Shown here: in pieces, positions 29,496 to 30,699 of the stretch
Layout of the letters: each line of letters begins with the position of its first letter
Numbering within the stretch: position 1 is the first letter of the stretch
Origin: an uncultured bacterium
GTDB taxonomy: Bacteria > Cyanobacteriota > Vampirovibrionia > Gastranaerophilales > Gastranaerophilaceae
Length of the DNA stretch: 64,000 bases
Direction of reading: 5' to 3'
Assembly: GCA_949298985.1 (NCBI GenBank)
Contig: CASFYV010000013.1
Location: 96,229-160,228, forward strand
Program-made: the position numbers and the translations under genes
The notes under the pieces: generated by a model
The model's input: only the letters and a program-made list of their open reading frames with translations
The model's database searches: none
What the model was told of the DNA's origin: nothing

Positions 29496-29674
29496 GTCTT
29501 GTTCGCTCGCATTTAACGGCAATTTCGTATTTTATTACAGTTGCTTTGCAACTTTGTAAAATCCTCCAGCCTTAGCTCGTGTAATTTAACAGTCGGTTTG
29601 AGAAAATTTAATACAAAGATTGATTATTCAAAATCAAAAATTTAACTTTTTGTGTAAAATATTCAAATGAAAAA

Positions 29675-29971
29675 TTATAACAAAGCACAAATATTTTGAT
29701 ATGATGACAATACTCTTAAAATATAAATACAATCATTTTCAAGATTGTAGACTACAAGATAATGTTTTTTTACAACAAAAAATCTAACATCCTTGTATGT
29801 AAAATCTTTTCTTGAAACTCCTAAATTCGGAAATTTAGAGAGTTTATCAAAAGTTTCATATAAAACTTGAACAAATTTTAATGCAGCTTTCTCGTTATCT
29901 TCTCTAACATGGTCAGCAATAATTGTTATGTCTTCTAAAGCCTTACTCTTAATTTTATAATCTTTATTCAT
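29675..29971 (-). CDS. parE: ParE/RelE-family toxin
   Basis: Y.I...ALEDI..I..H...DN..AA...V..L...F..L..FP.LG..R, HY.V.Y, ILRVL. Confidence 0.9.
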   Translation of the reverse strand: MNKDYKIKSKALEDITIIADHVREDNEKAALKFVQVLYETFDKLSKFPNLGVSRKDFTYKDVRFFVVKKHYLVVYNLENDCIYILRVLSSYQNICALL

Positions 29972-30200
29972 ACTTACTCATTAAATTTTTCATGGTTTCG
30001 CGACCATTTAAAACGGTTGTGTCATTTAATCCTTCTTCAATATCTCTGTTCAAGCGAATTAAATCTTCTTGCGAAATACCTTCTTTAGAAATTAATAACC
30101 TAATAGCTTCTCTAATTACTTCACTAACAGAATTATATAAACCAGATGCTACTTTATCATTTACAAATTTTTCCAATGCCGGAGTTAAAGAAATATTCAT
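29964..30200 (-). CDS. parD: ParD-type ribbon-helix-helix antitoxin
   Basis: MNISLTPALEKFVNDKVASGLYNSVSEVIREAIRLL; start set at 30200 behind GAGGT. Confidence 0.9.
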   Translation of the reverse strand: MNISLTPALEKFVNDKVASGLYNSVSEVIREAIRLLISKEGISQEDLIRLNRDIEEGLNDTTVLNGRETMKNLMSKYE

Positions 30201-30212
30201 ATAATACCTCAT

Positions 30213-30254
30213 TTATAACAATATATGTTTTAATTATAACAAAAATTGTTATAA
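30213..30254. promoter_or_regulatory. parDE operator: perfect inverted repeat plus an extra half-site
   Basis: TTATAACAA-AAA-TTGTTATAA (30234-54) and TTATAACAA (30213-21). Confidence 0.65.
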
Positions 30255-30422
30255 AATTCAATTATATAAAAATATTTTGCAGCAATTAGTAAATCAGATG
30301 TAAAATAACAACCTGTTCAATTAGCTTAGTATTTGGGGGACAGATAATTTTTAGAAACTTTAAATAATGTTCATGCAATAGCACCTAATATTTTAAAAGC
30401 AAAGAAAACATAAATACAGTCC

Positions 30423-30459
30423 GTATGATGCGGTAAATCACAGATTTACCGCATCATAC
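30423..30459. repeat. Perfect 17-bp hairpin abutting the right direct repeat
   Basis: GTATGATGCGGTAAATC-ACA-GATTTACCGCATCATAC. Confidence 0.9.
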
Positions 30460-30699
30460 TTGCTTTGCAACTTTGTAAAATTCTCCAGTCTTAGCTCGCT
30501 CACGCTGTCTTGGATTTACTCCACGCTCGGAAAGTTTCGCTTTTTGAACCTTCAGTTCAATATCGCTCAATTTCCTCACTATCCGGACTAACTCTATTTT
30601 GTCGTGTCGTCCGTACGTAAATCCGCTTGAACCCGAAAATAATGCTTTGAATTCTTGGGGTTCTACTTCCAGTACACAATTATTTAACAAATCAAAAAT

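Follow-up and report, generated by a model that had tools for sequence, protein, structure and literature searches.

A parDE cassette within a structured repeat unit at a tmRNA locus of Gastranaerophilales: a possible transposon-end fragment joined irregularly to its target

A parDE toxin-antitoxin cassette found downstream of a tmRNA gene interrupts a 92-nt structured unit and is bracketed by a 39-nt duplication of part of that unit. We favor, at a probability of roughly one half, a reading in which the cassette would be a non-autonomous transposon-end fragment that was joined irregularly to its target, with the flanking repeat as a by-product. This reading draws on the sequences of the two junctions in a 64-kb stretch of DNA from an uncultured chicken-gut Gastranaerophilales bacterium (hereafter, the window) and on their counterparts in related genomes and metagenomic contigs.

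Results

The cassette and its flanking repeats

The original prediction for this region described a parDE pair between 39-bp direct repeats, a perfect hairpin abutting one of them, and a small unit that reappears when the repeats are collapsed, and each of these elements withstood reanalysis. The repeat copies (29541-29579 and 30460-30498) are 37/39 identical, start 919 nt apart and align with a blastn E value of 2.9e-11; the exact 21-mer at their core occurs twice in the window, against 0.02 occurrences expected. They differ at two sites (C/T at 29563/30482 and C/T at 29570/30489), with C,C in the left copy, which is nearer the family consensus CTCCAGCC, and T,T in the right copy. Joining 29496-29579 to 30499-30506 restores a 92-nt unit (unit A) that aligns end to end with a 93-nt relative at 31143-31235 (unit B). 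Unit A is composed of a left arm (29496-29540; GTCTTGTTCGCTCGC...ACGGCAATTTCGT...), the 39-nt segment now present twice, and a right end (30499-30506; CTCACGCT) that was placed by alignment to the unit family. The first 5 nt of the repeat, TTGCT, can be assigned to either unit or cassette, so the unit-derived duplication measures 34-39 nt; in the right copy, these same 5 nt form a microhomology with the native flank of the adjoining hairpin module. A 78-aa ORF running through the right repeat (30454-30690) was rejected as a gene: it has no Pfam match, and its frame is broken in unit B.

The inserted cassette spans 880 bp (29580-30459). Its only genes are parE and parD, both on the complementary strand, and no integrase gene lies at either end. 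The predicted ParE toxin (98 aa, 29675-29971) matches PF05016 (E 1.3e-13, 51.7 bits against a cut-off of 23) and has 36 homologues, 52-100% identical to the query. The predicted ParD antitoxin (29964-30212; an 82-aa ORF, called as 78 aa in relatives) matches PF03693 (E 4e-7, 30.8 bits against a cut-off of 21), and its gene overlaps parE by 8 nt. The promoter region on the same strand (30212-30330), which is 95% identical to L010, holds a palindrome of 22+22 nt at 30212-30255 as a putative operator. A ParE/RelE-fold domain, an upstream RHH/ParD gene and a palindromic operator together argue for a type II module.

Beyond the promoter lies upstream filler brought along with the cassette (30331-30422), containing a 31-nt stretch that resembles L020/L022 and the sequence CCCCCAAATACT, a degenerate remnant of an inter-cassette hairpin element (CCCAACCTACAACT). 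The insert ends on this side in the perfect 17-bp hairpin module (30423-30459; arms at 30423-30439 and 30443-30459), which adjoins the right repeat copy. This module is multicopy in these metagenomes, with a contig depth that sums to as much as 632 (240 in another scan) and seven to eight unlike flanks. On the parE side, the cassette end (29580-29674) carries the terminus TGTAATTTAACA, also given as TGTAAWTTAACA.

The host unit occupies the T-loop of a displaced tmRNA arm

The tmRNA gene (ssrA; 30697-31092, complementary strand; tag ANKVVSMADYRAQRLAA), identified with ARAGORN and Rfam (RF00023, 101.7 bits), is the anchor of the whole locus. It is highly expressed in metatranscriptome X13, with 0 mismatches, and is the only part of the locus for which the RNA runs contained a transcript. 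Downstream of it, in tmRNA sense, come a GAACC...GGTTC hairpin (about 30637-30675), the 5' half of a second, displaced tmRNA T-arm (30628-30636; TCGGGTTCA, read from the sequence), and a 121-nt GTCTTG...CCGCT unit of another subfamily (unit 3; 30627-30507). These are followed by unit A with its cassette (30506-29496), the 3' half and acceptor strand of the displaced T-arm (29495-29481), and a terminator-like hairpin with a T-run (29468-29444) that is kept in the sister species, L004. Given this order, unit A is the T-loop occupant of a displaced tmRNA 3' arm, sharing the pseudo-T-loop with the 121-nt unit. The displaced 3' half, encoded like the hairpins and the 5' half on the complementary strand, matches the real tmRNA 3' end at 15 of 16 compared nt. 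The combination of hairpin and displaced T-arm recurs in L004 and at six tRNA loci.

Unit B lies on the other side of the tmRNA gene, within a 228-nt insert between exact 25-nt copies of the tmRNA 5' end (31070-31094 and 31323-31347). One X2 contig precisely lacks this insert.

A family of structured units at tRNA-linked sites

Searches with the left arm of the unit recovered six loci from species-representative genomes and one from JGI metagenomes. Six of these seven loci are independent, the seventh (L004) being the sister species' copy of unit B. At all six independent Gastranaerophilales loci, the unit interrupts a duplicated tRNA 3' fragment between ...ATT and CGAA..., and this fragment adjoins or stands near an intact tRNA gene. 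The linked tRNAs are Ser-GCU, Ser-CGA, Tyr, Gln and one unidentified (L009), and L005 has a degenerate Tyr-like fragment. The 3-4 nt preceding TTCG track the T-stem of the local tRNA (GCGTTCG, GTGGTTCG, CGGGTTCG). Units were seen only in T-loops of duplicated tRNA or tmRNA arms or beside other units, with head-to-tail arrangements at 30507-30627 (beside unit A), at 31143-31235 (beside 31236-31322) and in a tandem pair in L003.

Among eight aligned units the arms are invariant, and the central hairpin is variable, differing between all known units. RNAalifold predicts a single long bulged hairpin of 22 pairs for this alignment, seven of them with compensatory changes, and such changes fall in both the outer and the inner stems. 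In the outer stem, columns 7/92 pair as CG in five units and UA in three, and columns 10/89 as GC in six units and AU in two that are not mutually closest relatives. Folds of units A and B as single sequences are no better than those of shuffles, so the structural support lies in covariation within a small sample. The alignment thus suggests, modestly given only eight sequences, that the structure of the unit is conserved more than its sequence. Rfam returned no match for the unit, the hairpin or the cassette ends at either the gathering score or E<=10, the tmRNA being the sole match. Scans of viral contigs yielded one chance match for the unit, one phage intergenic hairpin for the inter-cassette hairpin and nothing for the 17-bp hairpin, and we found nothing relevant in the literature. 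The evidence supports a real family of structured units at insertion hot spots linked to tRNA and tmRNA genes.

Three allelic states of the T-loop

Assembled Logan contigs of 14 runs were searched for states of the T-loop, and three allelic states coexist in chicken-gut populations. The window state, in which unit A with parDE is followed by the 121-nt unit, occurs in runs X1-X3. The sister-species state, GTCTTGTTCGCTCACGCT and then the 121-nt unit, is found in the L004 genome and in contigs from X4-X7, X10 and X12; compared with the window it lacks 993 bp, with a 6-nt repeat at the bounds, and just an 18-nt remnant of unit A is left. In the third, empty state, an intact unit A leads directly into the remainder of the T-loop, with neither parDE nor the 121-nt unit. 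A 373-nt contig from X10 has this form (29481-29579 with 6 differences, then CTCACGCTCTAACCCGA, then 30636-30700), as do X11 and, as a minor form, X2; in both of these runs 29579 is joined to 30624 with CTCA between the sides. The original prediction had proposed a search for an empty site and for a 919-bp circle. The former exists as the intact unit A without parDE in these related lineages (X10, X11 and X2); for the latter, neither a clean 919-bp skip nor a circle joint appeared for the window's own lineage in the contigs of the 14 runs, a weak negative, as contigs drop rare variants.

parDE is a mobile module with a precise end

DNA 95% identical to the window between 29580 and 30330 or 30290 occurs in other Gastranaerophilales downstream of tRNA-Phe (L010-L013 and L018-L022), within arrays of small cassettes that are ordered differently from genome to genome. 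A cassette with a 106-aa ORF precedes parDE in L010 and follows it in L011-L013. In L018/L019 a truncated parDE flank is followed by NUDIX, and in L020-L022 parDE is followed by a CheR-like methyltransferase and a DUF559 protein. A P2-like prophage carries an 83% identical copy of parDE as a moron between baseplate genes.

The inner boundary of homology to the window varies (30330, 30290/30291 and 30273). The outer boundary lies at exactly 29580 in L010-L013 and is shorter (29597, 29635) in L018-L022. In L010-L013 the outer junction reads ...TTAATTTACA, then ATGGCACCA and a terminator, which constitute the tRNA-Phe 3' end, and a contig from X16 has the same 29580 terminus against yet another flank. 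The precise end of the module occurs against at least two flanks other than that in the window, and probably a third. parDE is a discrete mobile module with one end precise to the nucleotide. In L011, a direct repeat of ~115 nt brackets the parDE segment, beginning exactly at the terminus and ending in the short microhomology ATTTG. Long direct repeats of the host module also enclose those tRNA-Phe array cassettes that lack this terminus, so a more general recombination process could be at work.

The outer junction coincides with the end of a TnsB/TniB transposon

At L005/L026/L027 a unit lies beside a 14-kb island that carries a type II-A retron (RT and NDT effector), a type I restriction system and a Fic protein. 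The island also encodes two small HTH proteins, a 191-aa protein with an integrase SAM-like domain, a TniB-like ATPase and a 576-aa transposase of the TnsB/MuA family, whose nearest solved structure is ShCAST TnsB (PDB, E 3e-5). The tns-gene end of the island is the one nearest tRNA-Tyr, 70 nt downstream of it, where the sequence changes from ...GGGATGAGAAC to TGTAAATAAAG... at the boundary. The opposite end, where ...TGTTAAATTACA gives way to AGAACCACC..., is beside the hairpin and unit. A 5-bp AGAAC duplication results, and an uninterrupted copy of the insertion site is present in L027. These observations define the two ends of the transposon.

Window positions 29580-29591 are identical (12/12) to the first 12 nt of the island's cargo-side left end (L005/L026), giving the cassette a 5'-TGT... 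terminus that matches a defined element end, as in Tn7-like transposons. The orientation also agrees: the cargo end of the island faces away from the tRNA gene, and the cassette end likewise faces away from the tmRNA gene. Matches of 12-mers are frequent in this AT-rich DNA, so this one is meaningful only through its boundary-to-boundary position, for which we estimate a chance of ~5e-7 per comparison, with fewer than 10 such comparisons made. Beyond the terminal 12-13 nt, there is no clear similarity between the cassette end and the L026 left end, and no repeated TnsB-binding motif was found.

The window contains no second inverted end with a 5-bp target duplication and no tnsB and tnsC/tniB genes; tblastn with the L028 proteins gave a best match to TnsB/TniB of only E 0.19 in the window. 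The element would therefore be non-autonomous. Likewise, the genes scanned at 27000-34000 included none for a recombinase or transposase. The sole candidate for a second end, TGTATTTATG at 30418 on the complementary strand, is unlike the right end of L028, and its flank differs from that of the terminus (GCTCG versus GTCCG); a mini-transposon at 29580-30418 was rejected on these grounds.

The inner junction lies in the operator of another cassette

Two copies of the hairpin module flank the 106-aa ORF cassette in L010-L012, where the native continuation of the module reads (C/A)TACTTGCT, also recorded as (C/A)TACTTGCTATTAATAGC. One of these copies runs on into CTACTTGCTATTAATAGC, which is the palindromic region upstream of the 106-aa ORF. 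In the window, the module continues with ATACTTGCT up to the joint and TTGCAAC beyond it. Because TTGCT is common to both partners, the switch from donor to unit falls within it, and the inner junction reads as a 5-nt microhomology, TTGCT, inside the predicted operator of the neighboring cassette. The hairpin module, the remnant of the inter-cassette hairpin and the 31-nt match to L020/L022 identify the insert as a slice of an L010-type donor array. At one end this slice stops exactly with the transposon terminus, whereas its other end falls at an arbitrary position.

Discussion

A possible origin of the cassette

Under the reading we favor, the cassette would be a non-autonomous fragment of mobile DNA holding an intact, self-regulated parDE addiction module, and its parE side would end in the terminus of a TnsB-type (Tn7/Mu-like, TnsA-less) transposon. 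This fragment would have entered a pre-existing 92-nt unit A in the T-loop of the displaced tmRNA 3' arm. At the outer junction (29579/29580), the left-end terminus meets GCTCG of the unit's 3' arm in a joint that looks transposase-made. The inner junction (30459-30464) would be an illegitimate joint at TTGCT that connects the inner hairpin of the unit to the operator of the neighboring cassette in the donor array. The two joints fall 39 nt apart in the unit, which would explain the presence of a 39-nt stretch on both sides; this spacing suggests that the repeat is a by-product, neither a recombinase core nor a canonical target-site duplication.

We infer the involvement of a transposase from these features, and several routes of insertion can be envisioned. 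The fragment may have arrived by one-ended replicative transposition that a microhomology join then resolved, a plausible course for an element without TnsA; to our knowledge, one-ended transposition has not been described for Tn7-like or TnsB-type elements. Alternatively, incoming donor DNA may have undergone homology-facilitated illegitimate recombination, or a 919-bp circle may have looped out and reintegrated in Campbell fashion. All three routes would give the observed anatomy, which does not separate them. Weighing against a transposon fragment are the weak similarity beyond the terminus, the missing right end and 5-bp duplication, and the repeat-bracketed tRNA-Phe cassettes that have no such terminus. 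Once in place, the 39-nt repeats would permit precise loss of the cassette by homologous recombination, a loss that parDE would oppose.

The original prediction regarded the unit as an att-like landing pad and possible minimal system for cassette capture. The empty alleles bear out insertion into a pre-existing unit, but the 39-mer does not behave as an att core, since one junction is a transposon-type terminus and the other a 5-nt microhomology in a different cassette's operator. Taken to its full extent, this idea would make the unit an att- or attC-like folded site at which a trans-acting recombinase integrates partial-unit circles, with the 39-mer as the block of identity between attL and attR. 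Its appeal lies in the conserved long bulged hairpin with compensatory changes in both stems, as in attC sites, in the location of units at tRNA/tmRNA hot spots, in the module-cargo-module arrays of relatives with their varying cargo order, and in the existence of both empty and occupied alleles. Moreover, chromosomal integron cassettes typically carry toxin-antitoxin cargo. Yet neither junction falls at a defined site of this sort, the R' and R'' boxes of attC are absent or unconserved across nine units (GTTRRRY appears on the reverse strand in only three of the nine, in non-terminal positions, and no RYYYAAC partner was found), and the contigs of the 14 runs contain neither the circle nor the skip, rare forms of which could escape contigs. 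The alternative cargo expected of a capture system is likewise missing, as all of the other eight full-length units recovered are cargo-free, and no recombinase, IntI integrase included, was seen among the genes scanned near the cassette (27000-34000) or called in related arrays. We consider dedicated capture unlikely, and give it what weight we do because the repeat-bracketed cassettes without a terminus leave room for a general recombination process.

Such a process could also have operated with no transposase at all, if a structure from a donor lineage was imported by allelic replacement or Campbell-type integration and the 12-nt match is a coincidence or an ancient relic. The two flanks of the locus do differ in history (identity to L004 is 96% on the tmRNA side and 86% on the downstream side, and hipBA is absent from L004), and the coexistence of three T-loop states and the long direct repeats that generally flank tRNA-Phe array cassettes also fit. 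Recombination by itself leaves unexplained why homology ends at the identical point against different flanks and why that end matches a defined transposon terminus; in addition, 39 nt is short for RecA-dependent integration. We therefore regard this explanation as improbable. Less probable still is that unit A once stood in tandem copies, one of which received an element whose far end was later removed, along with parts of the units, by a deletion between two TTGCT motifs, leaving the 39-mer as an overlap of paralogues. Head-to-tail units do occur and TTGCT suits a deletion end point; however, central hairpins all differ, such that a shared hairpin would require an additional recent duplication, and the empty alleles have one unit A rather than two. 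The one-off tandem duplication that the original prediction set up as its refuting alternative is also not what happened.

Having set these alternatives against the transposon-fragment reading, we find the unit family itself a more interesting object than the parDE insertion. Toxin-antitoxin modules in tmRNA-linked hot spots are common. Less common is a host site from a structured repeat family that was found, in each instance, within the T-loop of a duplicated tRNA/tmRNA 3' arm, as are a TnsB-type transposon with a retron and restriction system beside such a unit in a relative and a single parDE module preserved in at least three contexts with one end exact to the nucleotide. These loci offer a tractable natural series for studying how transposons without TnsA, and fragments of them, spread and decay in an uncultured phylum, and one that bears on whether the units are targets, scars or mobile elements. 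A bolder proposal, which we view as rather a long shot, is that the 92-96-nt units and the other subfamilies constitute a new class of elements that colonizes hairpin loops and serves as an attachment platform for TnsB transposons and small defense or toxin-antitoxin cargo in Melainabacteria; parDE would then be one product of hairpin-directed capture that duplicates long stretches of the target.

Relationship to known systems

ParDE modules of type II are known as cargo of tRNA/tmRNA islands, prophages and transposons, and the module described here shares their domains, overlapping genes and palindromic operator. Its settings are also similar, namely a tmRNA-linked hot spot, tRNA-Phe arrays and a prophage moron; it differs in lying inside a 92-nt structured repeat and being bracketed by a 39-nt duplication. 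Tyrosine-integrase islands are flanked by direct repeats that are part of the target, and both the 39-nt repeat and the tmRNA 3' end repeated at 29481-29495 (15/16 nt) conform to this pattern.

TnsA-less Tn7-like elements, Tn5053 and type V-K CAST, which use TnsB with TnsC or TniB, are replicative and home downstream of tRNA genes. The relative's island resembles them in its TnsB, TniB-like ATPase, TGT termini, 5-bp duplication and position 70 nt past tRNA-Tyr. The cassette shares the island's 12-nt terminus and orientation, whereas the window has no right end, tns genes, 5-bp duplication, Cas12k or CRISPR array. One-ended transposition has been described for Tn3-family elements such as Tn21/Tn1721. 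Like the products of that process, and of homology-facilitated illegitimate recombination during natural transformation, the cassette has one precise end, an inner end point that varies, microhomology where the joint is irregular, and a non-canonical target duplication; in our case, the route is deduced from anatomy alone.

Two CRISPR-based interpretations were discarded. A homing spacer fits poorly with a hairpin that is elsewhere a dispersed single-copy module, a related transposon without cas genes and a "protospacer" that abuts the end with no spacing. A CRISPR repeat duplication would have two copies only and an 880-nt "spacer," with no CRISPR match at gathering score. We also set aside a dif/Xer reading of TGTTAAAT, in which only 8 nt are XerD-arm-like and there is no XerC arm.

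Similarity to integron attC sites and CALIN arrays extends to the small, promoter-bearing toxin-antitoxin cargo, an imperfect-hairpin site in the 57-141-nt size class with structure conserved over sequence, the shuffled arrays of relatives and the lack of a recombinase next to the array. The differences are unconserved R''/R' boxes, partial flanking units and junctions that do not fall at one site. Finally, the units depart from REPIN/REP elements and other structured intergenic repeats in that they were seen only in T-loops of duplicated tRNA/tmRNA arms (or next to other units), their arms do not form simple inverted repeats, and no RAYT-type gene was seen. Shared with those elements are multiple copies, the capacity to form hairpins and a GC content above that of the genome, which hold for the 92-96-nt unit as well as for the 37-nt hairpin.

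Allelic states of the tmRNA-linked site

In chicken-gut populations, the pseudo-T-loop of the tmRNA, that is, the T-loop of its displaced second 3' arm, occurs in three allelic states (window 29496-30636; 4973-4990 at L004, the sister-species locus). It holds an 18-nt solo sequence together with the 121-nt unit, intact unit A only, or unit A interrupted by parDE together with the 121-nt unit. The solo 18-mer consists of GTCTT, a single hybrid 11-mer and CT, the composition that recombination between the terminal 11-mers of the unit would produce.

The opposite end of the tmRNA gene also carries a duplication, in which identical 25-nt copies of the tmRNA 5' end stand on either side of a 228-nt insert (31070-31347). 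This insert is GC-rich (52%) and contains two units, one of them unit B. A contig of the sister lineage, from sequencing run X5, lacks the insert and has an AT-rich promoter immediately upstream, and the 93-nt unit B is precisely missing from one contig of run X2.

Related units and cassettes elsewhere

All units found at the tRNA-Ser, Tyr, Gln and Glu loci of relatives (L003, L005-L009, L026) sit within a duplicated tRNA 3' fragment, in its T-loop, and a conserved module, GA(T/A)GAGAACC-hairpin-GGTTCG, precedes each of them; L003 carries two units in tandem with a period of ~185 nt. A second unit type of ~42 nt, CCTCTCG...CGGCAGAG, occupies the T-loops of tRNA-Phe and tRNA-Glu fragments (L010, L011, L018, L026). 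Within the window, a 94-nt member of the GTCTTGGATT...AAATCCGCT subfamily of units (19477-19570) is distant from all tRNA genes detected by ARAGORN; it folds much better than shuffled sequences on its two strands (z -4.1 and -5.1).

At the tRNA-Phe cassette arrays, the 5' end and promoter of the tRNA gene are present as one to three tandem partial duplications (L010 1330-1630; L011 2290-2410), each split by a GC-rich insert of 33 nt that follows GCCGCAATAGCTC. These duplications parallel that of the tmRNA 5' end in the window. Each cassette in the arrays L010-L022 is preceded by a 25-28-nt hairpin element (TTGGGTTTCACCCAACCTACAACT). The same element is present in a phage intergenic region (L025 4790-4830), and it may therefore be a terminator-like module that moves together with the cassettes.

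A transposon in relatives and a second toxin-antitoxin pair

Relatives also carry a 14-kb TnsA-less TnsB/TniB transposon (L028 7362 to ~21800, equivalent to L026/L005), which lies 70 nt downstream of tRNA-Tyr and is bounded by a 5-bp duplication, AGAAC. Its cargo includes a type II-A retron, a type I restriction-modification system and Fic. Pfam recognized no TniQ, Cas12k or resolvase in this transposon; proteins of 141, 143 or 191 aa may serve as its target selector.

In the window, a hipBA pair (27702-29313; HipA, 410 aa; HipB, 79 aa) adjoins the far side of the displaced tmRNA terminator. Missing in the sister species (L004), it is, besides parDE, the second toxin-antitoxin pair of this tmRNA-linked hot spot.
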